64,000 bases of DNA from Squalus acanthias. Its lineage: Eukaryota. The translations under genes and the position numbers were made by a program. Under the pieces are notes generated by a model. That model did not search any database. It was not told the DNA's origin and worked only from the letters and a program-made list of their open reading frames with translations. Location of the stretch: positions 46,624,001 through 46,688,000 of the forward strand of contig CM059434.1 in the NCBI GenBank assembly GCA_030390025.1. The letters are read 5' to 3'. Shown here in pieces: positions 231 to 50,030 of this stretch (position 1 is its first letter; each line of letters starts with the position of its first letter).

Positions 231-1073
231 GTCTTGCCCTTCAGGATAAGGCTCCTACTTTTCACTTTTCTAATGTATAAAAATGTGAATTGGCCATATA
301 ATTAATTTGGTCTCAAGTGTCAGAAATCATTCCTTCCACTTTTGGGTTTAAAAAATAATGGTAGTTTTGTGTGGAAAAGCATTTTTGAAGGACAATAGAA
401 ACTGCTTGGAAATTTTTGGCTTCAGATTAGAAGAACCCATCAGGAAATGACTCACTTACGGTTTCTCTCTTTCTTTTTTTTCTTTTTTCTCTCCCCTTCA
501 CCAGTTTAGTAATGTTCATAGTCAGTCGAAGGATATGGAGGATGTAGCTGGGTTGCTATAGTGGCTGAGGTGGCTGTAGAGGCTGTGACATGCTGAAGGG
601 GGTAGTGGCAGTGTGTTTAGTGTATTTATTATTGTTTAGATTTTTATGCTGCGTTAATGTGCTGGCTCAAGTATAAGTTGTACTTGGATGAAATGGGATG
701 AGTTGGAATAGCAAGAGGTGAGGGTGTGGAGTGGGACTGAGGGTGATGAGTGATAGTGGAGTGCCAAGGTGTGTTGATATTCATTTGTTGATTGGAATGC
801 GTATAATTGTAATAATACTATATAGTGAATCATTGATTATTATATGATGAAATAAAAGGTGAAATTTGTAGTTTTTAAGGAAAGGTGACTCTTGGAAAAT
901 TTAGTAGAAAATTATAGAAAATAACCCTAATCCTAATGCAGTGTTGAAAAAAGAAAATATATGCTATTAAACAATGGAGAAATTCAAGGAACTTAGAAAT
1001 TAAGTTAAAGATAGTGTGAATGATCATTGTTCTGTTATTTTTTGAAGAAATTAAGAATGAGTAGAATGCTTAC

Positions 1074-1225
1074 CTTTTGAGAGGTGAAGAATTGAGTCCA
1101 GTCATATAAGATATCATTGATAATTTTTTTTTCATTTTTATGCAAGAATAATGCTGGTTGTTGGTGAGCTGGGTGGTAGTTTTGTCGTCCGATTCTGAAT
1201 GCACAGTTTTCTTTAATTTGTTTCC
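1074..1225 (-). other. Candidate host-gene exon (152 nt)
   Basis: Minus strand TTTTTTATACAACAG|GGAAAC...CTCAAAAG|GTAAGC; open in two frames; product not recognised. Confidence 0.3.
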
Positions 1226-1829
1226 CTGTTGTATAAAAAAGGTAACTCCACGATATAACAGGCATCAAGCTGCAAAGTCCATCCGAGATTAAAACACAGG
1301 TTTCAGAAGAAACAAGCCATTGTAGTCTGGTGTCTCAATCCCAGCAATGTAATATTTTTCTAAACTCGGTTTACAATTAGTATACATACATTGTCAGGCC
1401 TACAATATCCAGATCCGGCATACACACCTTGCTAACCATGGCCATTGCTAGATGTTAAAAAAAATTGACCATTTAAAATCATTACTAAATAAATACTGTA
1501 TCGCTGCTGTCACCAATGGAGATACTGCACCATTTGTTAATGAAGGTTTAAGTTCTGAGCGTTGAAGTAAAGATGGCATTTTCCTCTTATACTACAGTAT
1601 ATAAACCACATCTTCAAACTGCTCCACAAATATCTATGCGGTTAGTCTGAAATCCTAATATTTAATTCACGTCAAGCACTGTACTTACTGGTATGAAACT
1701 ATTAAATGTGAATCTTCATAATCACTTCAGCCGAAGCAATTTTAAATATATACACAAAAAATTCAGATACTCAACCTCTTTACTAAACACTTCAATGAGA
1801 TGGTGCAAGATAGTAGTTCAGATAGATAG

Positions 1830-1980
1830 CGTGCACTGCACTTTACAACAGAGCTGTGTGATGTGGTTATATATAGAATTTGTATGCTCTCCATTACAGT
1901 GCGATTGTGGGACACGGTTGTATATATAATATGTATACTGCACATTACAGTGGGACTGTATGACATGGTTGTATATACAA
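1830..1980. repeat. ~51-bp minisatellite, left part
   Basis: Units like TGTATACTGCACATTACAGTGGGACTGTATGACATGGTTGTATATACAA; the array continues at 6890-7075. Confidence 0.85.
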
Positions 1981-2713
1981 CGGCCTGGAATTTCTGCTCT
2001 GTTGCACTGGTTTTCAGTGCAATTCGCCCGAAATCAGCCAAACCAGCACAAAAGATTGAGGAACATCCAGCACAAATTGAGTTTCCGCGATCTTTTGCAT
2101 CGGCATAAAAAACATTGCGCTGGAAGCTGGCCCCGCCCACAAAACTGGCCACGCGCCCAGATCAAGTGAATCACCATTGCGAGCTTCCACTAATTGCGCC
2201 CGTTTGTAGGCCTTCGAGGAGGCTCTTCAAATTAAGCTGTTCGTTTTTTTTTTAGGAGCAAGGACACTAATAGGCACCTTTTAAAAGCTTTTAAATGTTA
2301 AAAATGTTTTAATTTGCTAAGAAACTGGGTACTGTATACCAATGAAACTAATGGGGGGAAAAATTAGGTCGCGCTCCATTTGGGGCGCAAATATCGTCTG
2401 GACGCAAATATTAGCGCCTGGCGCTAATTATCGCCACTGACTGGAAACTTCACTTTTACCGCCCCGGGAGGTGAGTGGAGCGCTAAATCAGGCGCTGCAC
2501 ACCTGTCTTAAGGCGCAAAGGCCGAGCAGTGAGGCGCTAACTCAGCGCGCGAGCGCAGCGCAGCTGCTGCCAGTTAGCGAGGGAACACAGACACACTGGC
2601 GCCGGCCACTTCTTAAAGCGGGGGGGAGCCAACTTGCTCCCCAGCCACACCCTGCTCATTGCAGCCTTGAATCTCGGCCTGGAGAGACCTGTGAATCCAT
2701 TTTGCTGCCAAGG

Positions 2714-4532
2714 ATGGAGAGGGTGAGAGAACGAGCTCATCGCTTCACCGAGCGGGCCTTGGATGCTCTGGTTGGCGCGGTGGAGCGCACAAGATGTATA
2801 CTCTTCCCTGAGAGTGGCAGGAGGCCTTTGCCACGCGAGTTCAGAAGAGTGTGGAGGGAGGTGGCTCAGAGCGTCTCCTCCAGGAGCATGGTGCCCAGGA
2901 CCCATACTCAATGCCGCAAAAAGTTCAACGACCTCACTCGGGTCGTCAGGGTGAGTGGCTTTTTCTCAATACCTCTCCATCCCTCCATCTCAACCTTACT
3001 CTATGGCCAGAGGGTCTTAAAACCCCAATGCACAACACTCATCCAACACCTATGGCCCTTTCATGAAACACACACACACATTCCACACTTTGCATACAGT
3101 AAGGCTATTCACCTATGGGAGGCACATCAGGCAAGACCATGGCTGCATACAGTAAGGGCTATTCACCTATGGGAGGCACATCAGGCAAGACCATGGCTGT
3201 ATATTTACTCAGATGCTGACCTTTTTCTTACAGGCCAAGCTGGCGCATAATCGGAGACAGCAGCAATGGACAGGTGGAGGGCGGCCTCAGCTGCAACCCC
3301 TCAGCGATCTTGAGGAGCGCGTCCACAGGATTGTGGCAAGCTGGGTGATCGGTCCCGTCGCCACTGGAGACGCTGACCCCGTTCTGGACAGCAATGGTAA
3401 GGTCATCACCTTTTTGTCCTCTGTCCTTCCACTTGTCCCTCACAACACCAGCCTTTGACACTTTCAATCCAACTTGCTAACTCGCTGCACTTATTCCTCC
3501 CTTACTGCCACCCTGTCCTCACGCTAAAGCCACTCTTGTACCTCCCTGCTTTCAGATGGTGATTCACCAGCTGAGGAGACGGGCCCTGAAGCTGCCACTG
3601 GGAGTGAAGCTGCAGCCGAGGAGGAAGAGGAAGCCGGAGCATCAGTGCCACCCTCTCCCGAGGAAGCCCATGCCCACACTGGGAACACGCCTTCCCTGGA
3701 GGGGAGCAGGGGGGAAGGGTCTGATGAGGGTGAAGCTCCAGGACCCAGCGGGCTGCAGCAACGCCATGGGGGTAGGGAAGAACGGGGGCCTTCTCCCCAG
3801 AGGGAGAGTATGCCAGACACTCCTACTGCAATGGACGCAGAGGAGGAGCGGCTGATCGCAGAAATGAACACCCAGGCGGTGGGCATGCACACTGAGCTCA
3901 TGGGTGCAGTGGGAAGGGTGCCCGAATGCATTGAGTCACTGGCAAGGAGTGTGGAGCACTTCGCTGTAGCACAGGCGGATGCCACACTAACGTTTAGTGC
4001 TGCAATTCAGTCACTGGCTGCCGTGATCCCATCTCTGACTGCTCTCATGCAGACTCAGATTGAGGCCACGCGAGCACAGACTGCTGCCAACCTCGATGGT
4101 TCGTTCACATGTCCCCGGGGCTGTCACCGCACCGCAGCAGGCCAGCAATCTGTTCTTCAGCAGATTTCTCCGGATGCTGAAGTGCTGCCCCGTGGGAGTG
4201 CCAGTGTGTCGGGCGAGCAGGGAGTTGCTGTCCTCTCTCACGATGACAGCATTCCTGCTGCCAACACTGTCACTTCTCCACTGCACTTGCCACCGCCTGT
4301 AGGACAGACTGCTGCCGCCCATGCAGAGTTGGTGCAGTCTGCAGCCGGGCCCTCCAGGCCCAGAACTGGTCGAGGCCGTCCTTCAGGGGCATCTGCAGTG
4401 TCAGGGTCTGACGAGCAGCAGCCTTCCACCAGCCTTGCTGCAGCCACTGAGGTCCCATTACGGAGGAGCAGTAGGGTTAGAAGGGGGGAAGTGCGCAAGG
4501 GAAGGAGATCACCCTCGAAGGGCAAAAAGTAG
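2714..4532 (+). CDS. Harbinger Myb/SANT-like DNA-binding protein (NAIF1/MSANTD-like), 3 exons: 2714-2950, 3234-3396, 3556-4532 (~458 aa)
   Basis: RERAHRFTERALDALV...WREVAQ...RTHTQCRKKFNDL...AKLAHNRRQQQWTGGG; canonical GTGAGT/TTACAG and GTAAGG/TTTCAG introns (phase 0 and 1) join into one open frame. Confidence 0.88.
3091..3198. repeat. Tandem duplication (~54 bp x2) in Myb-gene intron 1
   Basis: TGCATACAGTAAGG(G)CTATTCACCTATGGGAGGCACATCAGGCAAGACCATGGC twice. Confidence 0.9.
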
Positions 4533-4845
4533 GAGGTGTGACAAAATGCTGGTCATTTTTTTATTAAAAGGTCGAGGTTCATGGTCCAACTTTTGTTTAG
4601 TGTTTTGGACATTATCTCCAGGTTGTGAGAACCAGTTATGTTATTGACTGTTTTTTTGTGTTTATTTATATGAGTTTGTCATGAGGAATTGACACACACA
4701 GAGTTTGTAAAATAAATAAGTTTCTGTATTCAAAATATACATGGTTGGTGGTTGGAATTATTGGTGCCTTGGCCGGCTTAGGGGTTGCGTGCTGGGTTCA
4801 TTGATGTTGTTAGCAATGGCAGAAGCCATTTCCACAGCAGGGGCC

Positions 4846-6006
4846 CTAGAAGCGGCTTGCTATTAGCCGTTGACGGACGGCCCTTGCAGTTTCACCATTG
4901 TGGGCCGCCCTCCCGCCTTGGTGCTGCTGATGATCTTCCTCCTCGTCCTCTTCCTCCTCTTCCTCCTCCTCCTCTGGTGGTGCTCCAAGGCCTGGTGGCA
5001 TTGGCTGGGTCCTGACGATTGCCATGTTATGCAACATGCAGCACACAACTACGAAGTTGGATACTCGCTCAGGCGAGTACTGCAGGGCTCCTCCAGAATG
5101 GTCGAGACAGCGGAACCGTTGCTTCAGCACGCCGATTGTGCGCTCAATTATGTTCCTGGTAGCTTGATGGCTCTCATTGTACCGCAGCTCAGCAGGGGTG
5201 TTGGGCGTACGGAGCGGTGTCATCAGCCAGGTGCTCAATGCATACCCCTTGTCCCCGAGAAGCCAACCAACTGGCTGATGCGGTGCCTCGAAAAGTTCTG
5301 CCACAGTAGTCTGGCGCAGGATAAAAGCATCGTGGCAGCTGCCAGGATAGTGGGCATTGACAGCGAGTATCAGCTGTCTGTGGTCACAGACCAACTGAAC
5401 ATTCAAGGAATGGAACCCCTTTCTGTTCCGGAATTCCTCGGCATTCTCATGCGGAGCACGCAAAGCCACATGCGTGCAGTCAATGGCGCCCTGCACCATG
5501 GGGAAGCCCGCTACCCTCGTAAAGCCCAGAGCGCGGTCACGCTGCTTGTCTGGGGTCATGGGGAAAGAGATGAACTCTCGTCTCCTTTTAAAGAGGGCAT
5601 TTGTGACCTGCCGGATGCAGCAATGCACCGCGAACTGGGAGATATTGGCGAGGTCCCCAGCAGCAGCTTGAAATGAGCCAGTAGCGTAGAAGTTGAGAGC
5701 CACTGTGACCTTCACTGCCACCGACAGAGACGTCCTGGACCTCAGTTGAGGCTGCAGATCTGGCTGCAGCAGGTGGCAGAGCTCAGTGACCACCTCCTTG
5801 CTGAATCGCAGCCTTCACAAACACAGCTCCTCAGACATATGAAGGTAGGAGAGCTGTTCACGATATACCCTGGGAGGGTAAGCTCTCCTGTACATACGCC
5901 TGTTGGCCCTCCTCCGTCTGGCCATCATTGCCACTCTCTCTCTGCGTCTCTGTGTCCTCCGATTCAGCTGGAGCAGGACGACGCCCCCAATCAGTGCAGC
6001 CCCCAT
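4846..6006 (-). pseudogene. Harbinger (HARBI1-like) DDE transposase, ~386 aa, one in-frame stop at 5815-5817
   Basis: GAIDCTHV, NRKGFHSLNVQLVCD, LLGDKGY and RNIIERTIGVLKQRFRCL motifs; ORFs 5815-6075 and 4846-5793 are in the same frame (LCL*RLRFSKEVV); copy 2 has Arg at this codon. Confidence 0.93.
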
Positions 6007-6194
6007 AGTGTCTTTGCAAGCAAAGTAATGAAGGACAGCAACTAAAGTACTAGCGAAGTTAGGATCAGTAGGCAAAACTACCTCACAAAGCGTTGAGTCA
6101 ATGCAGAAGTCTCTCTTTCTCTCTCTCCGAATCTCTCTCTCTCTCTCAGAACGAGTGGTGCAAAAATGTCCACCACAGAAAAAGACAGGAAGAG

Positions 6195-6350
6195 GCCCCC
6201 TTTAAATAGCGCCCCCCCCAGCCCCACAGGGATTGATAGCGTTCCAGTCTTCCGGTCGTTGGATGCGCCAGGCGGTAAGGCAGGGGGCGCCACTCAATTT
6301 CCGCTCCGGGGCGCCACAAGAGCGTTGCACCATGGAATGACGTCACAATC
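6195..6350 (-). promoter_or_regulatory. Putative transposase promoter (TATA-like TATTTAAA and CRE TGACGTCA)
   Basis: TTTAAATA at 6201-6208 (+); TGACGTCA at 6338-6345, also present at the matching place in copy 2 (~46302). Confidence 0.4.
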
Positions 6351-6889
6351 TGCGCGCGCAGGTGGTCGCAGCGGTAAGGTTTAGCGCCGCCGCACAATCT
6401 CTAGTTAAGTTCCCGAGCGGCGCAAACATCGCTGCGCCCGGGCGTTAGCGGCTTTGCGCCCCATTAGCGCCTCTTAAGGCGCTAACGGGAGGCGCAACCA
6501 ACTGAATTTTTACCCCATGGGTCTGTATAGTTTTTTTAAGTCATTTTCAGTTATTTAAAATCCGAATGCTCACAGGTGGTGGACTAGACACTGATTAAAA
6601 ATGCTTATTTTTTGTGATAAACCCACTTTCAGCTGTATTAATAAAACTGCACCAGGTTAACACCCTTAAATATATCAAGCAATATTTTTTAATACAAAAC
6701 AAATTTTAAAAATATGTTCTAAAATACTGCCATGTTGTGCTGGTTCATGGCAAATTTTACGTTCGGCGATATGCAAATGTATTTGAACGGAAACTTGAGC
6801 AAGAAAATCACTTCTGAAAACTAGTGCAATTTTGAGCGTAATTTGCGACTGGATTGCCGATTGCGCCCAAAGCGGAAACTCTACCCCTT

Positions 6890-7075
6890 TATGTATACTA
6901 TACATTACAATGGGACTGTGGGATATGGTTGCATATACAAGGAATTCACTGTACATTACTATGGGTCTGTGGGACATGGCTGTGTATACAGTCTATATAC
7001 TGTACATTATAGTGAGATTGTGTTATATGGTTGTGTATACAATCTGTATACTGTACATTAGAGTGGGACTATGAG
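6890..7075. repeat. ~51-bp minisatellite, right part
   Basis: About 3.5 degenerate units matching 1830-1980. Confidence 0.85.
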
Positions 7076-8274
7076 TCCTAGCTCAGAATTGTAGTGTTCA
7101 GATATGTTGTGTTTCCGGCTGCCATTAAAAAAAATGTTTGGAGATGTTCTCCATTTGGTGTTAGTGCTCCCTCTGCTGGTAAAAATCTCTTCCTGGTTGA
7201 CATGCCTACCACAGGCATCTTTTTCAATTCAAAGTCAACACACTTAAAATATATTTAAACAATATTGTAGAAATAAGAGGAGGCCATAATTCAAAGTATG
7301 CTAAGTTCATTATATCAATAATGCTCAACTCAATTGTTGCCTTGGAACAACTCATGTGAACCATTGCTCTACAGATCCTTCTCAGTCTAATGGAAATATG
7401 CCCCATTACACAACTTCTTTATTCTGGACAGAACATCAAGAAACATTCCCATTTTCTGTGAATAACTGGTTTCAATGAGTGTGAGGTATGAAAGCAGTTG
7501 CTGAACAATGCTTGCCAAGTTCAGCAAGCATGTTATGCCGAAACTCAAGAGTCCGGAATAATCTAATCAAGGGCAACAGTTCTCCAAATGTAATATATGC
7601 CTGCAGCACTCATATTGTTCCTGTTAAGACGACTGCAGTGTTTTTAAATTGTTTGTAAAATTTTGAAACCGAGATAAAAAGCCAAGGACTGCAGTGCAGA
7701 ACTACAGCAAAGTTGAAAAGAGTAAAAAGACTAGGCAAATCAGGATGAACAGATTAGGAGATGCCACATTTGAGTCTTAAAAGCCTATAGGTTGTAGAAG
7801 GACGGAAAAGACTGATGGATGTTAAGAAGTTCCATCGTCTTTAGCTCCTGGGAAAGAAAGAAGTCGTAATTTCAACACAGTGTTGATGTGGGGATGGGTG
7901 AGAACACGTAGAATAGTGTATTTGCAGCTTTAGAGGAACAACAAAGAGCACTGATTATAATGGCATTGATAAAATGGAGACACAAGAACACTATATTAAA
8001 GGTCACCTTACATGTATCATAAATGATGGAATGAGGAAATGTTACATCTTCAGTCTAATTCAGCTCTTCATGTAGATTGGCCCATGGTCAAGTTTCTCAC
8101 TTCCTAGCTATTCTGTTCTGACGAGCTTTGGCAGGGTGGCATTGGTGACTCAAGCAATAGTGGCTCGAACCAGAAGGCCATAAGTTCAAGACCCACATCT
8201 GCCAATTCCAACACTCTTTGAATGCTTAGGGGATTTCTGCAGTTCTCAAACAGGCTGATGGATATCAAACCATG

Positions 8275-8539
8275 ATGTGGAGATGCCGGCGTTGGACTGG
8301 GGTGGACAAAAATGAGAAGTCGCACAACACCAGGTTATAGTCCAACAGATTTATTTAATTTTACAAGCTTTCGGAGCAGTTCGCTCCTTCGTCAGGTAAG
8401 TTTAGCAGTGAGAGAATCTCCCAGAATTCTGGGAGATTCTCTCACTGCTAAACTTACCTGAAGGAGCGAACTGCTCCGAAAGCTTGTAAAATTAAATAAA
8501 TCTGTTGGACTATAACCTGGTGTTGTGCGACTTCTCATT
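8275..8539. mobile_element. Head-to-head palindromic dimer of PLE family-1 3' termini with hammerhead motifs
   Basis: Near-perfect palindrome centred on GAATTC 8424-8429; arms match the PLE end at 14850-14940; 14-bp TSD GATATCAAACCATG at 8261-8274 and 8540-8553. Confidence 0.9.
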
Positions 8540-9296
8540 GATATCAAACCATGCAGAGATAAAATATTCCATCTCAAAAGGGACAGGAAAACCAGATGGC
8601 TAGACCATGATGCTTAAACCATGTCTCCTGCAGGCTGGTCATCAGACAGCAGCTGTGAAGAGGTTGGCATACCAAGTCCAAGTGACATCTTGAATCATGC
8701 CTCTTATTTGCAGGCCAGTGTAGTTATGTGACTCAGAAAAAAGTCATCAGCCCAGCCTGGCATACGCTCTTTACTGGAAGAGGATGTACAGGTACAAACT
8801 CAGCTCCTGGGGTGAAAAAAAGGAGGAGGGAAAAAACATTTCAAAAGACCCCTAACTGCTCAATAACAACTTAACAATTTGGCTTCCAATTACTTATCTA
8901 TGCAGATACAGGACTCCGAGGTAAATCCTTATTATTGCTGAATTAAAATAAGCCTTTTTGAGAGAGAGAAACATTTCTGTGCCCATCAGTATGAGGGATG
9001 ATAATTTGGAAATGTTTTCTTCTTCTGCACTCACTCACATTGACTTCAATGGAAATAGAAATCGGGAGAGATGTAAACAGGCTTTCGACATGCACAAAGT
9101 CAAAGTCCACCCCTGTGCAGTTGCAGGTTGCAGTGCATTTTAATGCAGCAATTGACTCTACTAACATCACACATCTGAAGTGTAGACTGCATAAAGCTTG
9201 AAATTCTGTATTCTGAATTGGGAAGGACAGAGATAGTGTTCAAATGTAGCTCCCAGAATGTTGCTGCTAAATGTTTCATTAACATGTGGTTTGTAC

Positions 9297-11599: not shown

Positions 11600-11945
11600 A
11601 ACTAATTGTACAAATCAAGTACTCCTAGTTCAGGCAAATGGTTAGATGCAGGATAAAGTTTTGTCTCCACTAGCCCAACAATGTACCTTAACCCTAATCT
11701 AGAAAAAGTATTGACTACTACACAAGTATGCTGCTTCAATTTCCCATGTCTGAGCAAAATTGCCCAATTAGTGCCAAGTTTTGAGTTGGTTGTGTCCACT
11801 ATGAACTGTTGATTGAGTTGAGATTGCTGACACTCATTTCACTTAGTCCTCTTATAGCCAGTACAGAAATAATTTCATCTATTGGTTTGGGCTGGGTTTA
11901 AACCCAGGGCCGAGAGCTAAAAGGATAGTACTAAAATCCACTGTC
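11600..11945 (-). mobile_element. LF-SINE-like ancient SINE
   Basis: Reverse complement has TTGGCACTAATTGG and GTGAAATGAGT blocks recalled from the LF-SINE consensus; related pieces at ~22930-23210, ~58400-58660 and ~61150-61270. Confidence 0.55.
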
Positions 11946-11954
11946 ATTCTAAAG

Positions 11955-14522
11955 ATGATCCCGAAAGGACTACAGATCACGAACCCACTCAAGTCGACAT
12001 ACAACACAGACTATGCTGAGAGACTCTGCCGTCGTACCTCTCGCACACTCCTCAACCATCTCGTACACCAGCTCTACAGCAAACGCCACAACCTCGAAAC
12101 CAAGATAGAGTCCATGCTCTCAGCCTGTGCTCAGGACACAGCAGACCAGTTACGAGACACCGCCAAACAGACGAGGCAACGGAACTACGCTGCCTACATG
12201 CGCATCAAGAACAGGAAGCTTGAGAAACTCGGCATCACCACCAGCAGCAACCAAGCCTCCCCCGGTACCACGGCTGCAACCACAGGGAAGTCCATCGTCA
12301 ACTTGTCCGACCATACCCTTCAACCAGACGAAATCGAAGTTCTCGCCCTAGAGCTCAAGTTCTGCCCAACCACCAAAATGGACCCCATCGGTCTCGCGGC
12401 AGACACGGAGGAATTCATCAGGAGAATGAGGCTCCGGGAATACTTCCACAAATCCCAAGATGTCAGCAACAAACCCAATGAGACAATCAATGATCCAGAA
12501 CAGCAGACAGAGGGACTCGCAGTGCAGCAACCGAAGAAAAAAGAGTCAAACTGGACCCCTCCGGAGGGTCGATGCCCCAAGCTTGACATGTATGCTCAAG
12601 CGGTCAGGAGATGCATCAACGCCAGATTCATCAGCTGCACTCACAAGACAGTCCAGAATGTCACCCGAGCACAACGCAACGCCATCCACGCTCTCAAGAC
12701 CAACTGCAACATCGTCATCAAACCAGCGGACAAAGGAGGAGCCATCGTCATACAGAACAGAACGGACTATTGTAAAGAAGCATAACGACAACTGGACAAC
12801 CAGGAACACTACAGACAGCTACCCGCAGATCCGACCAAAGAACACACCCGCCAACTCAATAGACTGATCAAGACCTTCGATCCAGACCTTCAAAACATCC
12901 TACGCGCTCTCATCCCACGTACTCCCCGCATGGGAGACTTCTACTGCCTCCCAAAGATACACAAAGCCAACACACCCGGACGTCCTATCGTATCAGGCAA
13001 TGGAACCCTGTGTGAGAACCTCTCTGGATACGTCGAGGGCATTCTGAAACCCATCGTACAGGGAACCCCCAGCTTCTGTCGCGACACTACAGACTTCTTA
13101 CAGAAACTCAGCACCCACGGACCAGTTGAACCAGGAACACTCCTCGCCACGATGGACGTATCGGCACTCTACACCAGTATCCCCCACGATGACGGCATCG
13201 CTGCGACAGCCTCAGTACTCAACACCAACAACAGCCAATCTCCAGACGCCATCCTACAACTCATCCGCTTCATCCTTGACCACAATGTCTTCACCTTCGA
13301 CAACCATTTTTTTACCCAAACACACGGAACAGCCATGGGGACCAAATTCGCACCCCAATACGCCAACATCTTCATGCACAAGTTCGAGCAAGACTTCTTC
13401 GCTGCACAGGACCTCCAGCCAACGCTGTACACCAGATACATCGACGACATTTTCTTCCTTTGGACCCATGGCGAAGGATCACTGAAAAGACTACACGATA
13501 ACATAAACAAGTTCCATCCCACCATCAAACTCACCATGGACTACTCCTCAGAATCGGTTTCATTCTTGGACACACGAATCTCCATCAAAGACGGACGCCT
13601 CAGCACTTCACTCTACCGCAAGCCCACGGACAACCTCACGATGCTCCACTTCTCCAGCTTCCACCCTAACCACGTTAAAGAAGCCATCCCCTATGGACAA
13701 GCCCTGCGAATACACAGGATCTGCTCAGACGAGGAGGAACGCGATGGACACCTACGGACGCTGAAAAACGCCCTCGTAAGAACGGGATATGACGCTCGAC
13801 TCATCGATCGACAGTTCCGACGGGCCACAGCGAAAAATCGCATAGACCTCCTCAGAAGGCAAACACGGGACACAACCAACAGGGTACCCTACGTCGTCCA
13901 GTACTTCCCCGGAGCGGAGAAACTACGCCATGTTCTTCGCAGCCTTCAACATGTCATCGATGACGACAAACACCTCGCTAAGGCCATCCCCACGCCTCCA
14001 CTACTTGCCTTCAAACAGCCGCCTAACCTCAGAAGTACCATCGTTCGCAGCAAATTACCCAGCTTTCAGGATAACAGCGACCACGACACCACACAACCCT
14101 GCCACGGCAAACTCTGCAAGACATGCCAGATCATCAACACAGATACCACCATCACACGTGAGGACACTACCCACCAGGTACATGGTACATACTCATGTGA
14201 CTCGGCCAACGTTGTCTACCTCATACGTTGCAGGAAAGAATGCACCGCGGCATGGTACATCGGCGAGACCATGCAGACACTGAGACAACGTATGAACGAG
14301 CACCGCGCAACAATCACCAGGCAGGATTGTTACCTCCCAGTCGGGGAACACTTCAGCAGTCAAGGACATTCAGCCTCGGATCTGCGGGTAAGCGTTCTCC
14401 AAGGCAACCTTAGAAACACACGACAACGCAAAATCATCGAGCAGAAACTGATAGCCAAGTTCCGCACTCATGAAGACGGTCTCAACCGGGATCTTGGGTT
14501 TATGTCACGATACATGACGTGA
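11955..14522 (+). pseudogene. PLE reverse transcriptase / GIY-YIG endonuclease, single in-frame TAA at 12783-12785
   Basis: KPADKGG, LPKIHK..PGRPI, TMDVSALYTSIP, GTAMG, YTRYIDD, CHGKLCKTC linker, VVY..C..WYIGET..R..EH; both ORF halves in the same frame. Confidence 0.93.
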
Positions 14523-14954: not shown

Positions 14955-16720
14955 TCATAGAATCATAGAATAGTACAGCACAGAAGGAGGCCATTTGGCC
15001 TATCGAGTCTGCGCCGGCTCTTTCGAAGAGCAATCCAGTTAGTCCCACTCCCCCGCTCTTTCCCCATATCCCTGCAATTTTTTCTCTTTCAAATATTTAT
15101 TCAATTCCCTTTTGAAGGCTACTATTGAATCTGTATCCACTACCCTATCAGGCAGTGCATTCCAAATCCTAACCACTCGTTGCGTAAAAAAGTTTTTCCT
15201 CATGTCGCCTCTGGTTCTTTTGCCAATCACTTAAATCTGTGTCCTCTGGTTATTGACCCTTCAGCCATTGGAAACAGTTTCTCTTTATTTACTCTGTCTA
15301 AACCCTTCATGATTTTAAACACCTCTATCAAATCTCCTCTTAGCCTTCTCTGCTCTAAGGAGAACAACCCCAGCTTCTCCAGTCTATCCACGTAACTGCA
15401 AATCCTCATCCCTGGAACCATTCTAGCAAATCTCTTCTGTGCCCTCTCCAAAGCCTTCACATACTTCCTAAAGTGTGGTACCCAGAATTGGACACAATAC
15501 TCCAGCTGGGGCCAAACTAGCGTTTTATATAGGGTTAACATAACTTCCTGACTTTTGTACTCTGGGGGGGGCGATTTTCCCAGCCCTGGGGAGGTGGGTA
15601 TGGAGGCGGGACTGCCAGGAAAATGGCAGAATCTGGGAGCGGGTACCCATCCCGCCCCCAACCTGCCTCTATGCCATCTTCCCAGGAGGCGGGTGCCCGA
15701 CCTGCGCCGGGTCCCGTCTCCTCGAGGCGGGAAGGGGATTAGTGCCAATTAACTGCCTGTTAACAGGTAGTTAACAGACAGTTTTTTGGCTAATCCCTAT
15801 TTTGAGCCCTAAAGTGTGGGCTTCCCGATGGCTCCGAACCTCGCCTGGGTCAGCGAGGTGAGCCGTGGGTCTGCGGGGGTCGGAGGGGCCGAAACGTCCG
15901 GTGTGCAGGTGAGTGATGAGTGCAAGTGTGGAGAGGTAAGTCTAAAGTGTGAGGTGAGTCTAAAGTGTTTTAATAAGATTACTTACCTTTGCTTCTTCCT
16001 CCAGGCTTCATCCCTTTAGGCTGCGGAGCTGCCTCATCTCACCGGCAGAGAAAGCAGAATGGCCGCTGCATTCTTAAATGCAGCAGCCTTCTGCTTTCTG
16101 CTCAGGAAAGCTTTCTAAGTGAGTCTGTGTCCTAGGTCTCAACTTAGAAGACAGATTGTCAGTGTTTGGCAGCTTCACAGAGCTGTCAAACGATAACAAT
16201 TAATCTGTCAAAAAATCTTGACAGATGAAGCATCATACACTGACATCATCTGTCACTGGCTTTCCCTTAATTGGCCAGCTAAGCCCGCTGGGCGGGCTTA
16301 ACAAGGCCAATCAAGGGAAAATAGCATGGGTTGGCCAGACATCAATGGAGGCGGGACTAAAACCCGACAAGCAGCTTTCCCGCCTCCATCATGTCCCCAT
16401 TGATAAAATCACCCCCAACGCCTCTATTTATAAAGCCCAGGATTCCGTCTGCTTTATTAACTGTTTTGTTAACTTGTCCTGCCACCATCAAAGATTTGTG
16501 CACAAGCACCCCCAGGTCTCTCTCTTCTTGCACCCCCTTGAAAATTGTACCATTTAGCATGTATTGTCTCTCCTCATTCTTCCTACTAAAATATATCACC
16601 TTACACTTTTCTGCATTGAATTTTATCTGCCATGTCTCCACCCATTCCGCCAGCTTGTCTATGTCCTCTTGAAGTCTATTACTATCTTTCTCACTGTTTA
16701 CTACACTTCCACGTTTCCTA
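14955..16720 (-). mobile_element. 5'-truncated CR1 LINE interrupted by a MITE
   Basis: CATAGAATCATAGAA tail; EQRRLRGDLIEVFKIMKG and RLQEDIDKLAEW peptides on either side of the insertion. Confidence 0.9.
15564..16416 (+). mobile_element. MITE family A copy 1 (Harbinger-like, ~850 bp)
   Basis: TIR GGGGGCGATTTT / AAAATCACCCCC; colinear with 23655-24501 and 28947-29792; no coding capacity. Confidence 0.85.
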
Positions 16721-23654: not shown

Positions 23655-24501
23655 GGGGCGCGATCTTGCCAGCCCTGGGGAGGCGGGTATGGAGGCGGGA
23701 CTGCCGGGAAAATGGCAGAATTTTGGGGCGGGTGCCCAACCCGCCCCCAACCTGCCTCCGTGCCATCTTGCCAAGAGGCGGGTAGCCGACCCGCACCGGG
23801 TCCCGGCTCCTTGGAGGTAGGAAGGGGATTACAGCTATTTAACTGCCTGTTAACAGGTAGTTAACAGGCAGATAAGAGGATTATCCCCATTTTACCCACA
23901 CAAGTGTGGGCTTCCCGAAGGCTGCGAACCCTGCCAGGGTCACCGAGGCGAGCAGTGGGTCTGCGGGGGTCAGAGGGGTGCAAAAGTGCGCTGTGGAGGT
24001 AAGTGTTGGGTGCAAGTGTGGAGAGGTGAGTATGTGAGGTAAGTGGAAAGTGTTAGAAAAAGTTTACTTACCTTTGTTTCTTCCTGCAGGCTTCAAGAGT
24101 TGGGTATGCGGAGAGTCTCGCACCTCCGCGACAGAGATGACAGATGGCTGTTGCATTCTCCAATGCACCAACCATCTAATTTCTGCTAAAGAAAGAGGTT
24201 TGATGAGTCTTGAATTCAAGAACTCATCAAACAACAGAGAATGTCAATGTTTGACAGCTTCACAGAGCTGTCAAACGATGACAATTCATCTGTCAAAACT
24301 TTTTGACAGATGAAACGTCATACGCTGATGTTCTTTGTAACTGGCTTTCCCTTAATTGGCCTGCTAAGCCCGCTGGGCGGGCTTAACAAGGTCAATCAAG
24401 GGAAAATAGCGTGGGTTGGCCAGAAGTTGATGGAGGCGGGACATCGACCCGACAAGCAGCAGTCCCACCTCCAACGTGCCCCCATTGGCGAAATCGCCCC
24501 C
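23655..24501 (+). mobile_element. MITE family A copy 2
   Basis: TIR GGGGCGCGATCT / GAAATCGCCCCC; flanks AACAC-(C/A)AA-GTGTT. Confidence 0.85.
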
Positions 24502-25045
24502 AAAGTGTTTGTTTAATAGATCAGAAGTTGTCCTAAAAGCAACACAATGCATAAAACTGTAGTTGCTGCAGCTTCGAGAGGCAGTTATGTCTAGAGGCAG
24601 AGGTATCCATGGGAGCATGGGATCAGCATTGCCTGTGGGTTAACAAACAAATTTTGGTTTCAACATCAGCAACAACAACAACAACGTGCACTTATATGGC
24701 ACCTTTGTCATAGACGATGTTCCAACGCACTTCACAGAGGCGTAAGGAAAGAAAATGCAAGCTGACTTCCAAAAGTCGTTTGATAAAGTGCCACATAATA
24801 GGCTTACCAACAAAGTTGAAGCCCATGGAATAAAAGGGACAGTAGCAGCATGGATATGAAATTGGCTAAGTGACAGGAAACAGAGAGAAGTGGTGAACAG
24901 TTGTTTTTTGGACTGGAGGAAAGTATACAGTGGTGTTCCCCAGGGTCGGTACTAGGCCCACTGCTTTTCTTGATATATATTAATGACTTGGACTTGGGTG
25001 TACAGGGCACAATTTCAAAATTTGCAGATGACACAAAACTTGGAA

Positions 25046-28946: not shown

Positions 28947-29792
28947 GGGCTGGATTTTGTCAATGGGGACGTGATGGAGGCGGGACTCCCACTTTTTGGG
29001 TTGTAGTCCCGCCTCCATCGACTTGTGGCCAACCCACTGTATTTTCCCTTGATTGACCTTGTTAAGCCCGCCCAGCGGGCTCAGCAGGCCAATCAAGGGT
29101 CCCTTGGATACAGGTGACGTCAGCCATTGAAATTTCATCTGTCAAGAGCTTTTGACAGATGAAATTTCAGCGTTTGACAGCTCTGTGAAGCTGTCAAACA
29201 CTGACAATATGATTTCTAACTTGAGTCGCTGTACTTAGAGACTCAGTTAGAAATCAATCCAGCACAGAAAGCAGAGACTGCAGCTTTTGACAGCTCCACG
29301 GCTATTCTGCTTTCTGTGCCGTGGATGTGAGGGACTCCCGACACCTTAAGGAAGCTAGCCTGCAGGACAAAGTTAAGGTAAGTACAAGTTTTTAAAACAC
29401 TTTACACACACCAAACACACTTACCTCTGCACTCATGCACCCATCACTCACCTGCACACCGGACATCTCGACCCCTCCAAGCCCTCCAGACTGACGGTCC
29501 GCCTCACTAAATCGACATGGTTCGGACCTGTCGTGAAGCCCACACTTCAGGGCTAAAAATAGGGATTAGGCAAAAAACTGCCTGTTAACTACCTGTTAAC
29601 AGGCAGTTTATTGGCACTAATCCCCTTCCCACCTCGGGGAGGCGGGTCCCAGCACAGGTCGGGTACCCGCCTCCTGGGAAACTGGCATGGAGGCGGGTTG
29701 GGGGCGGGATGGGTTCGGGACCCCCGAATCTGCTATTTTCACACCACTCCCGCCTCCAAATCCGTCTCCACGGGCCGGTGAAAATTGATCCC
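28947..29792 (-). mobile_element. MITE family A copy 3 (inverted), inside a PLE family-2 3' end (~28915-29862)
   Basis: TIR GGGCTGGATTTT / AAAATTGATCCC; reverse-colinear with copies 1 and 2. Confidence 0.85.
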
Positions 29793-42625: not shown

Positions 42626-42811
42626 TAAACTCGTTAAACTCAGGTGCAGTCTAATCACAAGTCATCAATGCCACAGACTCTTTCCAGTTCTTAAAGGGGA
42701 GGTTCATTGATGCTGCAGAACCTCATTCTCATCATTGCTGGCTGTGCAGCTGCCTCAGCCAGCAGCAGCAGGCCAAGGAGAAGGAGCTGGATGACTCAAC
42801 CAGCCATAATC

Positions 42812-44676
42812 ATGGCAGATCCACACCCCAGGGAGAGAGCCCGCAGATTCTGCGACCATGCATTGGAGGCGTTGGTGTTTGCAGTGGAAAGACAGAGGGC
42901 GGTGCTCTACCCGGCAAGTGGCAGGAGGCCCTCGCCACAAGTCTTCCGCACTATGTGGAGGGAGGTAGCCCAGCATGTCTCGGGCAGCACTGTGATCCCC
43001 AGGACCCACACACAGTGCAGGAAGAAACTTAACGACCTCACTCGGGTGGTCAGGGTGAGTCAATGCTTCAACAAATGCTACATACCACCATCTGAACCAC
43101 AGTCTGCTCACACTGCCCAAAGCACCACACACCCCAGCACTCACCCACCAACAATCTCTACCTACCAACACTCACACCCACATCTCACACCTTGCACACA
43201 ATGACAGCTATTCAACTATGGCAGGCACATCACCCAAACACATTGCTCCACACTCACTCACATGCTTTCCTTTCTCTTGCAGGCCAAGGTGGCTCACAAC
43301 AGGAGGGAGCAGGAGCGCACAGGCGGGGGACAAGCCGACACTCAACCACTGTCTGAGCTAGAGACTCGAAAGCTGCAGATTATTGGGCTGCAGGTGGTGG
43401 GCACCGTAGTCGACTCTTGGGGACAACAATGATGTGTTCATCCCTACTCCTTCTTCTAACATCCCACTTCCCCCTCACCCCACAAGCCTTTCGCACTTTC
43501 CAGCTAATCATGCTGAATGCATGCATTTCTCCCTTCCTGCCCCCTCCTCTCACCTTAACCCGAATCTTATGCCTTTATGCTTTCAGATAATGAGCAAGCA
43601 CTTGAGCAGCCTGTCCCTGAGGGCACCATAGAGAGCGAGGCGGGAGAAGAGAAGGAGGAAGAAGACACCACGTCACTGCATGTCTCACCCGTAGGCACCA
43701 GCCCAGACACTGGCACTACGCGCTCTTTAGAGGCTAGTATAGTAGCGGGATCTGAGGCACCGGGGACGAGCTGGCTTCAGCAAGGCCAGGGGGAAAGGGT
43801 AGCTCGGGAGCCAGCTCCCCGGAGGGCGAGTTCGGCTGCACAGGACTCAGATGAGGACCTCGATGAGGAGGTGTTTAGAAGAAGGTTGATGGGCATGCAC
43901 ACAGAGATGATAGGTGCCATGGCAAGGGTGCCCGAGAGCTTCTCGGCAATGGTAAGGAGCGTGGAGGAGACCACCTTCAATATTGCACAGAGCTCTGTGC
44001 ACACCATAGAGACCATCATTTCCAGTCTGCAAAGGATGGTAGATTCCCAGAGAGACCGTGGCGACCCAGACCTGTTGCGATGGGCGATCTGGCAGCTTCC
44101 ACTGCAGCACAGGCAGAAGTGATGCAACATCTTAGTGCTGTAATGCAGTCTATGGTTGGTGGCATCCAATCTCAGACTGCTCTCATGCAGTCTCAGCTTG
44201 ATGCCACGCAAGCTCTGACAGCTGCCATCATGGCTGGGTCTACCACCGTCGACCAGGGCTTTCACGGTGTCGCAGCAGGCCAGCAATCTGTGCTGCAACA
44301 GATTGCTAGGGATGCTGAGGTGCTGCCCCAGGGGAGTGCCAGTGGGTCAGTGGAGCAGGAAACTGCTGTTCTTTCTCAGGAGGACAGCATTCCTGCTCCC
44401 ACCACTGGCACTCCACCATCATCCTTGTCGCTGCCTGTCATCCAGCCAGCCCAGATTGCTGCTGCCCATGCTGAGGTGGTGCAGTCTACAGCCAGGCCTT
44501 CCAGGCCCAGAGCTGGTCGAGGGCATCCTGCAAGGCCATTTGAATTCTCCCACACGGACACTCAGCAGCCTTCCACCAGCCATGCTGCAGCCTCTGGGCC
44601 AACACTTCATTGGAGCACTAGAGGAGGCAAAGGCACAGTAACGAGAGGCACTAAGGGATTGCACAAGGGTGAATAG
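42812..44676 (+). pseudogene. Harbinger Myb/SANT-like gene, degenerate (exons 42812-43054, 43283-~43431, 43587-44676)
   Basis: RERARRFCDHALEALV..WREVAQ..RTHTQCRKKLNDL; same intron positions as copy 1; exon-2 donor appears mutated; frameshift near 44080. Confidence 0.85.
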
Positions 44677-44839
44677 GTAATATTGTTTTTGTATATATCT
44701 GTTCACTGATTATTGATAAATTTATTAATTCAGTTTGGATTTTTTGTGATGTCTCTCATTTCAGCTTTGCGCTGTGGTATGGCCTGCGACGGGGATGGAA
44801 TGATGGGGATGTGATGAGCAATGGGGATCTGGGGTTTAA

Positions 44840-46000
44840 TTTATTGGAACTGCAGTCTGATGAGGTGGTCATGAAAGGCCGATTGAGTGGTTGCCTCCTC
44901 CCTCGCTCCTGTTCCTCCTCCTCCTCCTCCTCCTCCTCCTCTCCCTCTTTCTCCTCCTGAGGTGGTCCTGCAATCCCTGGTGGCAAGGGCTGGGCCCTCA
45001 TGATGGCCAAGTTGTGGAGCATGCAGCAGACCACGACGAAATGGGACACCCGCTCAGCCGAGTACTGGAGGGCTCCTCCCGAGCAGTCAAGGCAGCGGCA
45101 CCATTGCTTGAGCACTCCGATGGTCTGCTCGATGATGTTCCTGGTGGTGGCATGGCTCTCATTATATGAGTGCTGGGCAGGAGTGTTGGGGTTGCTGTGG
45201 GGAGTTATGAGCCAGGTGGAGAGCGGATAACCCTTGTCTCCAACCAGCCAGCCGCGAGCTTGACATGGTGGCTGGAAGAGTGCTGGCACACCGGTCTGGC
45301 GCAGGGTGAAGGCATCGTGGCTGCTGCCAGGATAGCGGGCATTCACATTGAGGATTCGCTGTCTGTGGTCACACACCAACTGCACATTAAGTGAGTGGTA
45401 GTCTTTGTGGTTACAGAAGATCTCAGAATTGTGAGGCGGTGCCCGCAAAGCCATGTGGGTACAGTCAATGGCGCCCTACACTATGGGGAAGCCCGCTATC
45501 CTGGCAAAGCCACATGCATGTTCGTCCTGCTTCTCTCTGGTGAAGGGGTAGGAAATGTAGTCCCTTCTCCTACTGTAGAGAGCCTCTTAGACCTTCCGGA
45601 TGCAGCAATGGATGGCGAACTGCGAGATGTTAGCTATATCTCCTGTTGCAGACTGGAAGGATCTGCTGGCAAAGAAATTGAGGGCATCGGTGACCTTGAC
45701 TGCCACTGAGAGAGCCGTGGGCACCCTGATATGAGGCTTGAGGTCTGGTTGCAGGAGGTGGCAGAGTTCTGTGACCACCTCCTTGCTGAAGCTGAGCCTT
45801 CTAATACACTGGAGGTTGGAGAAGTGCTCTAGGAATACCCTCAGAGGATAAGGCCTCCTGTTGAGAGCCCTCATGGCCCTTCTCCTCCCTCTGGCCACAT
45901 GTTCCAATCTTTCTCGCTGCCTCCGCTCCCTCCACCGTAGATCCTGGAGGGCGAGGTCGACTGTCAGTAGAGCCCCTATTAATGTAACCAAGTGTAGCAC
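44840..46000 (-). pseudogene. Harbinger DDE transposase, frameshifted
   Basis: FSKEVVTELCHLLQPDL, HSLNVQLVCD, LVGDKGY, RNIIEQTIGVLK in separate ORF pieces. Confidence 0.9.
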
Positions 46001-47699
46001 TTTGATATGTTGTGAGAATAAATGTAACTAATTGTTAGTAGCCACAAAACTCGTGATACTAAACAACCTTTAAATGATTGAATTAAACTGCTGCACAATG
46101 TCAAACTGACAAGGAAGCAGTGAAACAGCACTAACATGACAGCTGAGACTCATTACTCATGATCCCGTTAAGTAGCATCCCTGGCGCCGGCATCCACCTG
46201 CTTGACGCCTCCTCTCCCTGTCGCTGTCGGGGCGAGTCGCTAAGGCAGGGGGCGACAATGAATTTTGCAGATCGGGCGTCCAGTGAGCGTTGCACATTCA
46301 CTGACGTCACGATCTGCCTGGCACCAAGGTCCCCGGCGGTAACTCGTAGCAGCGGCACTACGGGGGGGGTTGGATTTTGCGTGCGTTGCCTCACCTCGCC
46401 CCGGTGTTACTGCAGCAGTGCCCTGTTAGTGCCCCCGCCAGGCGCTAACTGGAGGCGCTAACCAACTGAATTCTTCCCCCAAAGTCTCATCTCCACTGTG
46501 AGGACATTCTCCAACATGTAATGTGGCACTACCACCATGTTAAGTGGGACAGATCTAGCAGCCCAAAAAGGGATATTCATGAAGCAATGTGAGCCATCAG
46601 CAGCAGAATTGTACACCACAACAATCTTTAACCTCATGGACTGGCACATCCCTCACTGTTTGATTACCAATAAATTAACAGCGTGAATATTGACACCACT
46701 GTGCCAGCCAATGAAATGGAGCAGGGTGGTACTTGTAGAAACTACAGCAAACAGAGACTCCTGAGTACAGCAGGATTATTTCTCCAGCGAAATGCAGTGA
46801 GTGGAGAATAGTTACATACAAATTAAATGCGTAAAATTAATCCCACTTACAGCAGTGCGGTCTCCGGGCGTGAGTGACCGGGGAATTACCCAATCACCTC
46901 CATTCTGGCCTGGAGTGGTGGTGTCACTATATGCAGCCATAAATGAATGTACCTATGCCAATGCATGGTGGTGGTCTTTACATTTATTTAAAGGTTCTGC
47001 CCTCTGTGAATGAGTGCCTGCTGCTGTGCCTGGCTGGGATGGTAGCACTTTCTTGAACAATAATCTGTACACTCCTACAGTCTGCCTTGGAAGGAGGTGG
47101 TAAGAGCGTGGCACCATTGTGTAAGCAGCAGGTGGAGGGACAGAGATATCGAGGGAGGGTATGAAGAATGATGCTGCATGAATAGGAGGAGGGTGCTGGA
47201 TTGACTGTGAGGATTCTCTTTCTAATCCAAGTGGCATGGAACAGATGCACGTTCAGCGAAAGTGGGGGGACGGGGAAGGGGCCTACTCGCTGGAAACAGA
47301 TGTTTGTGGCTCAAGAGATGGCCGGACAAATGACTTCAACAGCTATCAAGAGGAATTGTTTCCCCTCAATCTGCCTCCAAATAAGCCATATCGCAAAAGG
47401 ACAGGTGACACAGTGTTAAATACTGCCTCCATCACAAAGTGTAAAATAAAAATAGCATTCTGCAACAAATACAGAAACAGCAAAACCATTTTTTTAATTC
47501 AAAAGGCCAAAATGATGACCATTTATTGGCAATAATAGCCTGTCTTTTAAGACAGATAGCACCTAAACGGCAGCTCTGCAGTCAGTATAAGCAAGGTTTT
47601 TCTGGGAGTAGTTTGCCCCTGAACTGCACTCAGTGCTAAGAAAAGAAGTTTGAAGAAAGAAGTCTCCAATCTCTCTGTTTCTCTGACCCCAGATCTACT

Positions 47700-47970: not shown

Positions 47971-48059
47971 ACAGCACTTTAAAAATTCCTCTATTATTTA
48001 TTTCTAATTTTGTCTCATCTATTTTGTCTCAGCCTTCCTTGGTATGTCTTCCAGTTCAA

Positions 48060-50030
48060 TTGCCCTGGTAGACCCATCGTTTCAGCCTGTTCTTGCCCCA
48101 CAGAACTTATCTCTTCCTATCTCGACTCTATTTTTTCTCCCCTTGTCCAGTCTCTTCCCACTTACATCCGCGACTCTTCCGATGCCCTCCGCCACTTTAA
48201 CAGTTTCCAGTTTCCCGGCCCCAACCGCCTCCTTTTCACTATGGACGTACAATCCTTCTACACCTCCATCCCCCACCAGGATGGCCTGAGGGCGCTCCGC
48301 TTCTTCCTTGAACAGAGGCCCAACCAGTCCCTATCCACCATCACCCTCCTCCACCTGGCTGAACTTGTTCTCACATTGAACAACTTCTCCTTTGACTCCA
48401 CTCATTTCCTCCAAATCAAAGGTGTTGCTATGGGTACCCGCATGGGTCCGAGCTATGCCTGCCTTTTCGTGGGATATGTGGAACACTCTTTGTTCCAGTC
48501 CTACTCGGGTCCCCTCCCTCACCTCTTTTTCCGGTACATTGATGACTGTATCGGTGCCGTCTCCTGCTCTCGCCCTGAACTAGAAAATTTCATTCACTAT
48601 GCTTCCAATTTCCACCCTTCCCTCACCTTCACATGATCCATCTCCGACTCTTCCCTTCCTTTCCTCGACTTCTCCGTCTCCATCTCTGGGGATAGGTTAT
48701 TGACAAACATTCACTACAAGCCCACTGACTCCCACAGCTACCTGGACTACACTTCCTCCCACCCCGCCTCCTGTAAGGACTCAATTCCATTCTCCCAGTT
48801 TCTCATTCTCCGCCGCATCTGCACTGACGATGCCACCTTCCATACCAGTGCTTCTGACATGTCTTCCTTTTTCCTCAACCAAGGATTCCCCTCTACTGTG
48901 GTTGACACGGCCCTCGACCGTGTCCGTTCTATCTCCCGCACTTCTGCCCTCACTCCTGCCCCTCCCTCCCGGAACCACAATAGAGTTCCCCTTGTCCTCA
49001 CCTTTCACCCCACCAGCCTTCACATTCAATGGATCATCCTCCGCCATTTCCGCCACCTCCAGCATGATCCCACCACCAAACGCATCTTCCCCTCACCTCC
49101 TCTTTCAGCATTCCGCAGGGACCGCTCCCTCCGCAACACCCTAGTCCACTCCTCTACCACCCCCAGCACCCCTTCCCCTTCGCCCGGCACCTTCCCGTGC
49201 AAGCGCAGGAGATGCAACACATGCCCTTATACCTCCCCCCTTCCCACTGTCCAGGGCCCCAAACACCCTTTCCAGGTGAAACAGCGATTTACTTGTACTT
49301 CCTGCAATTTAGTATACTGTATTCGCTGCTCACGATGTGGTCTCCTCTACATTGGGGAGACCAAACGCAGATTGGGTGACCGCTTTGTGGAACACCTCCG
49401 TTCAGTCCGTAAGGGGGACCCCGAGCTCCCGGTGGCCTGTCACTTTAATTCTCCGCTCCACTCCCACTCTGACCTCACCGTCCTCAGCCTCTTGCATTGT
49501 TCCACGGAAGCTCAGCGTAAGCTCGAGGAACAGCACCTCATCTTTCGTTTAGGCACTCTACAGCCCTCTGGACTCAATATAGAGTTCAACAATTTCAGAT
49601 CATAACCCCGGCCCCCATCACATATTTTTATTTTATTTTTTTATCCACCCTTTTGTTTGGCCTTTTTTTTTTCTTCCCTCCCAGAAGCTGGCAGCTGTCC
49701 TTCATTCTGCCAGCGCAATTCACACTTCATCTAGAGCCATCCTTTGTTCCTCAACCTGTCACATTACCACCTCCTCTTGCCTTGAATATCTCTTAATGTC
49801 TCTCAATGTCTCTTAATCTCTCCTGCTTTCTATCCTACCACTGACCTTCCCTTTTGTTCTTTCCTCCCCTCCCCCTTTTCCCAGCATTATACTTGCTTTA
49901 AATCTGCTTCATTTCCTGCTTTTTTCCAGTTCGAACGAAAGGTCTTCAACCTGAAACGTTAACTCTGTTTCTCTCTCCACGGATGCTGCCTGGCCTGCTG
50001 AGTTTTTCCAGCGTTTTCTGTTGTTATTTC
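48060..50030 (+). mobile_element. 5'-truncated PLE family 2 (Neptune-type)
   Basis: RT and GIY-YIG ORF, 3' end with mutated hammerhead core (49926-49967); possible TSD TTCAATT. Confidence 0.92.
48061..49605 (+). pseudogene. PLE RT / GIY-YIG endonuclease, single in-frame TGA at 48634-48636
   Basis: PGRPIVS, TMDVQSFYTSIP, GVAMG, FFRYIDD, LPFLD, CKRRRCNTC, LYIGETKR. Confidence 0.92.

Follow-up and report, generated by a model that had tools for sequence, protein, structure and literature searches.

Known Harbinger elements and the shark locus

Transposition of Harbinger elements requires both of their proteins, the Myb-like protein binding both the element ends and the N-terminus of the transposase, whose nuclear entry it brings about (Sinzelle et al. 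2008, as cited in PMC2836001 and PMC9392472), and the Harbinger3_DR element of zebrafish was reconstructed by Sinzelle et al. 2008 and mobilised in human cells (cited in PMC3016246, PMC2836001 and PMC9392472). Within the PHIS superfamily, groups have been defined by their target-site duplication (TSD), namely CWG for NuwaI and TWA for PIF/Harbinger (Han et al. 2015, PMC4482050); the same source gives NuwaI terminal inverted repeats (TIRs) of 12–61 bp with a GGG start, and group mean lengths of about 4.1 and 4.5 kb. Among natural families, Harbinger-Snek of sea kraits is described as high-copy and of low divergence, with 269 intact copies in L. colubrina and reads over both genes (PMC8437027), and a nematode Harbinger family is reported to be active in nature (10.64898/2026.05.26.728016). 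A 2022 survey recorded no Harbinger in the elephant shark and proposed other cartilaginous fish for testing (PMC9179366), and a 2025 reef shark genome gives Tourist/Harbinger as the commonest DNA transposons at the level of repeat annotation (PMC12498223). Here we describe a Harbinger element of 4,163 bp at positions 2354–6516 of a 64,000-nucleotide stretch of Squalus acanthias DNA (GCA_030390025.1, contig CM059434.1, positions 46,624,001–46,688,000, forward strand; the window), in which every feature claimed in a preliminary description made from the sequence alone was found in its place. It is very probably a full-length PIF/Harbinger-type transposon with a premature TGA in place of CGA, one of many little-diverged family members, which has lost its own transposase but could still be moved.

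The element shows the structural features of the PHIS superfamily, namely a DDE_Tnp_4/IS5-like transposase with its catalytic triad, a separate Myb/SANT gene, short TIRs with a G/A start and a 3-bp duplication. The element resembles Harbinger3_DR in being a vertebrate transposon with separate transposase and Myb-like genes and a 3-bp duplication, but Harbinger3_DR has an extended target preference, AAACACCWGGTCTTT, which the shark site matches at 8 of 15 positions (hand count); the trimer is ATG here and AGA and TTA in other copies, the comparison being one of targets and not of sequences. With NuwaI it shares DDE and Myb/SANT open reading frames (ORFs) and a 12-bp TIR starting with GGG, and its 4.16 kb lie near the group means. 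Unlike NuwaI, its trimers depart from CWG, to which ATG conforms at two of three positions and AGA and TTA do not, and, unlike the PIF/Harbinger group, it lacks a consistent TWA, with ATG here and TTA and AGA elsewhere, three trimers in all being available for both comparisons. The NuwaI hosts listed in the available part of PMC4482050 include no cartilaginous fish. Harbinger-Snek, as described, is alike in its two genes, abundance and low divergence, but was horizontally acquired. By analogy, the shark element would work as Harbinger3_DR does and would add no new mechanism. In a literature search that did not extend to subscription papers, Repbase or Dfam, we found no description of a complete two-gene shark Harbinger family, and the supplementary tables of shark genome papers or of Han et al. 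may list some.

Structure and coding capacity of the element

The left TIR (2354–2365, + strand), of 12 bp and beginning with GGG, matches the right TIR (6505–6516, − strand, delimited by comparison with the left one) at 11 of 12 letters, and copies of ATG at 2351–2353 and 6517–6519 (both + strand) form the TSD. The family was further followed in public sequencing data. Twenty-three runs were listed by their share of 415 sampled words, with X19 and X20 (word share 0.05) left out, and four of them (X1, X8, X9 and X11), of which X1 is the best DNA run, were aligned to positions 1000–7600 at 90% likeness. The register 2354/6516 recurs in X1 in a head-to-tail junction of other copies, where a right end is joined to a left end across 11 letters and the other flanking trimers are AGA and TTA; the junction confirms the end positions, and its different trimers indicate independent insertions. 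An alternative register (AAT...CAT) was rejected because its TIRs would be asymmetric and because it conflicts with this junction. No empty site at base resolution was seen for the element.

On the − strand, a Harbinger-type DDE transposase of 386 codons (4846–6006) matches Pfam PF13359 DDE_Tnp_4 (E 7.7e-40) when read with X at its stop and carries the triad D176/D252/E288 (DD35E). Its frame contains a single internal stop, the TGA at codon 64. The predicted structure (predicted local distance difference test 83, predicted template-modelling score 0.79) gave no Foldseek match in the PDB at E <= 0.001, the weak top rows being TnsB, piggyBac, Mos1 and integrases (E 0.004–0.05), and a PDB sequence search gave a single, unrelated match (E 0.45). 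At position 236 the element has A where 88 of 114 homologues have P; the X9 and X11 contigs also carry A, which marks it as a trait of the family.

The second gene, on the + strand, encodes a Myb/SANT-like protein of 458 residues that is open from the ATG at 2714 through two predicted GT-AG introns. Exon 1 (2714–2950) holds the tri-helix domain (Pfam PF13873 Myb_DNA-bind_5, E 5.8e-9), the predicted exon 2 (3234–3396) keeps an open frame between GT-AG introns, and the predicted exon 3 (3556–4532) encodes an acidic stretch, a middle region and a basic tail. Together with the ends and the transposase, this bears out the Harbinger identity given in the preliminary description and, on the predicted splicing, its uninterrupted Myb/SANT-like ORF. 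Exon 3 has no Pfam match, and none of 8,000 scored candidates reached E <= 1e-5 in a protein search; in the ESM Atlas it falls near NAIF1 and Myb/SANT clusters at 0.78–0.79, with a recognition score below threshold, so that these are leads only. Exon 1 matched one of 166 candidates when compared with longer proteins, namely a Narcine sequence at 49%. Intron 1 holds a direct duplication of about 50 bp (about 3098–3200), across which the X8 contigs break (3119/3170).

Near both ends lies a repeated motif of the GGCGC(T/A)A type, with six copies in the left subterminal cluster (2384–2540) and seven in the right one (6207–6498), two of the latter being present also in the right end of a second Harbinger copy of the window (copy 2, below). 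The 717 bp of the ends contain 13 occurrences of the motif, the 3,446 bp of the interior none, and 35 kb of other sequence a single one. None of 1,000 shuffles reached the 12 matches that lie within 207 bp of either terminus, although the pattern had been picked after inspection of the data. Its distribution makes it a likely candidate for the binding site of the Myb protein. Motif scans further suggest a TATA-like element upstream of the Myb gene (2612–2618, + strand) and another upstream of the transposase (6200–6207, − strand), and the region between the 3′ ends of the convergent genes (4560–4716) contains the polyadenylation motif AATAAA at 4711 (+ strand) and at 4560 and 4661 (− strand).

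The premature stop codon and the private changes of this copy

The stop occupies 5815–5817 (− strand), where relatives have CGA. At 5817, CGA accounts for 249,211 of 252,883 depth units in X1 (at least 98.5%), and for all of the depth in X9 (403/403), X11 (79.7/79.7) and X8 (4.34/4.34). The proposed CpG decay of CGA is thus well founded, and its expected counterpart, near-identical copies with CGA, exists in the public runs as contigs about 1% different. The preliminary description had rested on the Arg of copy 2 at this site; the residue is indeed Arg, but its codon is AGA, which is not by itself evidence for CGA, and since copy 2 belongs to a different, decayed family it was rejected as a witness to the ancestral codon.

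Of 241 difference rows between this locus and the four runs, 40 were listed, 37 inside the element and three in the flank, which were set aside. At 10 of the 37 sites the other letter has a share of no less than 94% in X1 and is the sole letter (100%) in X9, X11 and X8; being nearly fixed in all four runs, it marks the letter of the window as private or nearly so. Four of the 10 private changes are CpG transitions, and all seven that fall in coding sequence alter a protein: R64stop and A163T in the transposase, and R26T (within the Myb domain), R91W and R116W (both in exon 2), A326T and A338S in the Myb-like protein, where all five are missense. This pattern fits unselected decay after insertion. 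The claim that the element is one point mutation away from integrity therefore holds for its reading frames, with their single TGA, but not for its changes as a whole, as it carries at least six private missense changes besides the stop, five of them in Myb. The Myb protein that the preliminary description suggested could still act in trans is the one that carries these five changes. As to the further indels or catalytic defects that would have told against the family, the triad is intact, and the 12 indel rows listed, out of 17, include none with majority support in a coding exon. Judged from the predicted structure, the only products to be expected with the stop in place are a 63-residue stub or a fragment starting at Met150 that would lack the predicted helices at 70–140.

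If the element behaves as Harbinger3_DR of zebrafish and Ping/Pong of rice do, its Myb-like protein would bind the repeated subterminal motif and would take the transposase to the nucleus and to the element ends, where the transposase would excise the element and reinsert it with a 3-bp duplication. The inserted copy would then decay without selection, with CGA turning to TGA at the CpG site. Such a copy would be non-autonomous, and its movement would need transposase supplied in trans by another copy.

Several observations count against this interpretation. Neither of the predicted splice joints, 2950/3234 and 3396/3556, which the preliminary description had proposed to look for, is among the 15 of 159 joints listed, and X9 contigs cross intron sequence at 2872–3119 and 3385–3579. 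No contig among those listed spans the whole of either gene, and a full-length copy with both frames open was not seen. That the motif near the ends is bound and that the copy can be moved in trans are predictions. For intron 2 there are two hints from X11, where one contig leaves the element exactly at 3396 for foreign sequence and another begins at 3555, the latter being the place where spliced and unspliced paths of an assembly graph would merge; both breaks may be taken to favour its splicing. That X9 and X11, whose contigs together cover both genes of the element, are RNA runs is itself a guess. The X11 contig that leaves the element at the exon 2 donor also suggests a chimeric transcript in which Myb exons 1–2 are spliced to an exon from outside the element.

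Abundance, age and possible present-day activity of the family

In X1 the summed depth within the element is 2.8e5–1.5e6, whereas the 3′ flank has about 18, a difference of about 10^4 times. Two crude corrections bring this to about 370–770 per internal site, a value that is no true copy number and that supports a statement only of the order of hundreds of copies. The longest contigs differ from this copy at 39 of 3,560 positions in X8, 18 of 1,816 in X9 and 13 of 1,429 in X11 (about 1%), with seven of eight pieces counted for X8, eight of eight for X9 and seven of eight for X11, one more-diverged piece being dropped for each of X8 and X11. The missing flank cover in X8, X9 and X11 is no proof of absence there. 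By the measure of Han et al. 2015 for a potentially active family, a copy or consensus with both ORFs intact, this copy falls short; its relatives carry CGA and, in the rows listed, no majority coding indel, as judged from contigs that each cover part of a gene.

Private divergence amounts to 10 of 4,163 bp, or 0.24% (0.14% without CpG sites), which is a lower bound because the difference rows are partly listed; the upper bound is about 1%. The published mutation rate of the epaulette shark is 7e-10 per base per generation (confidence interval 1.4–14.1e-10; PMC10587355, in the part available). At 7e-10, a rate from another species, 1% corresponds to 14 million generations and 0.14% to about 2 million, or to 1 million at the upper rate. 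Given such slow mutation, low divergence need not mean recent insertion, and the element may equally have inserted many millions of years ago. The description of the family as young is accordingly correct as to its low divergence but need not hold for time, since 0.15–0.25% of private change at the published shark rate represents millions of generations.

These data also bear on the strongest alternative, namely that the family is active today and that intact, expressed master copies still mobilise copies such as this one, which we regard as possible but less likely than not. At most 1.5% of the X1 depth lacks CGA at what is a CpG site, 7,678 of the 38,963 aligned X1 records are at least 99% alike, and the runs of organisms A and B that are probably RNA cover both genes, with open-frame alleles at the listed sites. 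The X1 records, however, are short unitigs, so that their identities hold for fragments and not for whole copies; no insertion polymorphism and no spliced read were seen; and at 7e-10 per generation (PMC10587355) the divergence stands for millions of generations. The element is probably one inactivated member among many of a family with little divergence, with nothing unique to revive. This genome probably also contains natural copies with open frames, so that the earlier characterization of the element as easily resurrected singles out nothing special about it, a zebrafish Harbinger having been rebuilt already in 2008.

Occurrence of the family in public sequencing runs

At least half of the 415 words are present in 18 of the 23 listed runs, which come from eight organism codes and one unlabelled run in 11 studies. 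This breadth raises the possibility of recent horizontal transfer, with the family at low copy number in unrelated animals. Organism C (X8) is the most suggestive case: long contigs tile 2403–6418 at an even depth of 4–6 with 1.1% difference and no excess of ends, and the X8 alleles equal the X1 minority at about nine listed sites, as might be expected of a low-copy transferred element. On the other hand, none of the listed X8 contigs continues past a TIR into flanking DNA of another origin, a family with hundreds of copies assembles even from trace DNA, and of the six runs of organisms C–H, X8 is the one that was aligned. A second run of organism E (X23), from the same study as the first, holds 0.00 of the words. 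The organism codes may, moreover, be those of related sharks, as in organism B, which also carries the outer repeat that surrounds the element (below) and surplus element ends, the pattern expected of a related shark; and no protein above 65% identity appears among the 120 of 282 matches listed in the search described below. Transfer is therefore an unlikely explanation. Pattern scans of JGI metagenomes and IMG/VR confirmed none of 622 and none of 602 matches, and these null results leave no lead to a vector. Slightly less probable still is the combined proposal that the shark family is naturally competent and mobile to this day, that its 3-bp target is loose, and that full-length copies of 99% identity were recently transferred into several unrelated animals; if true, it would provide a living vertebrate Harbinger that needs no rebuilding, and a path by which such elements leave or enter cartilaginous fish.

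Relationships of the proteins and the domesticated homologues

A search with the transposase returned 282 of 4,039 candidates at E <= 1e-50. Among the 120 listed (P0001–P0120), the best are shark and ray proteins annotated as 'putative nuclease HARBI1' and are 56–65% identical (Pristiophorus, Narcine, Mobula, Heptranchias), which points to a cartilaginous fish as host, and all three catalytic positions are kept in 52. In a tree of 50 rows, comprising 48 of the listed matches and the two copies of the window, Pristiophorus japonicus copies surround the protein with 92/91 support, and no starred (well-supported) clade contains it. Many of the listed 'HARBI1-like' proteins of sharks and rays lack the catalytic Glu, having K, R or Q instead, and short branches join pairs from different orders, namely Narcine/Mobula, Carcharodon/Chiloscyllium, S. 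torazame/Rhincodon and Pristis/S. canicula, the last with the triad kept only in Pristis. From their sequences, these proteins look like several domestications in cartilaginous fish beyond HARBI1.

The HARBI1/NAIF1/MSANTD genes (PMC9392472) belong to the same protein families as those of the element, but are fixed host loci. It is very improbable that the present locus is a domesticated gene pair of the HARBI1/NAIF1 type, or that the host has retained its Myb gene once the transposase was lost, even with an open Myb frame and many domesticated-looking HARBI1-like genes in sharks. Domesticated loci of this type are single-copy, conserved in place under selection and devoid of TIRs and TSD, whereas the element has its triad, intact TIRs and TSD, and a depth about 10^4 times that of its flank, and is nested in repeats. 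In addition, all five private Myb coding changes are missense, and the transposase falls with the P. japonicus copies and not with the short-branch cross-order pairs, although in no well-supported clade. An intact copy in which sequencing or assembly has wrongly produced the TGA deserves equally little credence: locus-specific reads at 5817 were not separated from those of other copies, but the TGA shares its CpG-type transition with three further private changes, and nine more private substitutions accompany it.

Copy 2 and other elements of the window

Copy 2, at about 42.8–46.5 kb, has 67–76% nucleotide identity to the element over the best blocks and 63% over Myb exons 1–2 and introns; its exon 3 product is 55% identical over 189 residues. 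Its transposase contains two in-frame stops and a 15-nt deletion, and in its Myb gene intron 1 retains donor and acceptor, while intron 2 retains the acceptor but has an altered donor. The ratio of nonsynonymous to synonymous substitution rates between the two is 0.21 for the transposase (298 codons) and 0.15 for Myb (75 codons of the exon 1 region), indicating that both genes were selected in the lineages linking the two families. The region 42800–46480 thus presents a decayed sister Harbinger with an intact right end and no recognisable left TIR. A third relative of the Harbinger type is represented at 60600–60910 by its right end, with 66% likeness over 218 bp.

The element itself sits in an outer non-coding repeat with approximate ends at 1982 and 6887 (about 370 bp per side; X1 depth 2.6e3–6.4e4), and in X11 a joint from 2296 to 6517 leaps over the inner element. 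The locus shows three levels of nesting: the Harbinger lies in this multi-copy non-coding repeat of about 740 bp (1982–2353 and 6517–6887), and the latter lies in a 51-bp tandem array (1832–1980 and 6894–7083). At about 1075–1330 (− strand) there is an open frame up to a donor-like site, without a Pfam match, which is possibly a host exon, in which case the nest would sit in an intron.

Elsewhere in the window, three non-coding elements of about 850 bp (15565–16415, 23655–24503 and 28950–29790) are 79–81% alike with GGG-type inverted ends, and one of them has a palindromic ACAC...GTGT flank resembling the Harbinger3_DR target. Penelope-like retroelement frames (RVT_1, E 6.8e-9; a weak GIY-YIG, E 0.0009) occur at 11847–14519 (about 890 codons, interrupted by one stop) and 47983–49602, and a reverse-transcriptase frame of a long interspersed nuclear element at 51354–52514 (− strand; RVT_1, E 1.3e-31). 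A near-perfect 91-bp inverted repeat with a 69-bp spacer at 8300–8550 forms a small hairpin like those of miniature inverted-repeat transposable elements.

Implications

The locus provides a full anatomy for a shark Harbinger family, comprising both genes, the catalytic triad, a candidate Myb-binding motif, a variable TSD and evidence of the stop being absent from close relatives. It offers a practical basis for asking whether DNA transposons still move in sharks today, or for building a vector that prefers other targets, and it would matter more if the cross-species signal were to represent real transfer.

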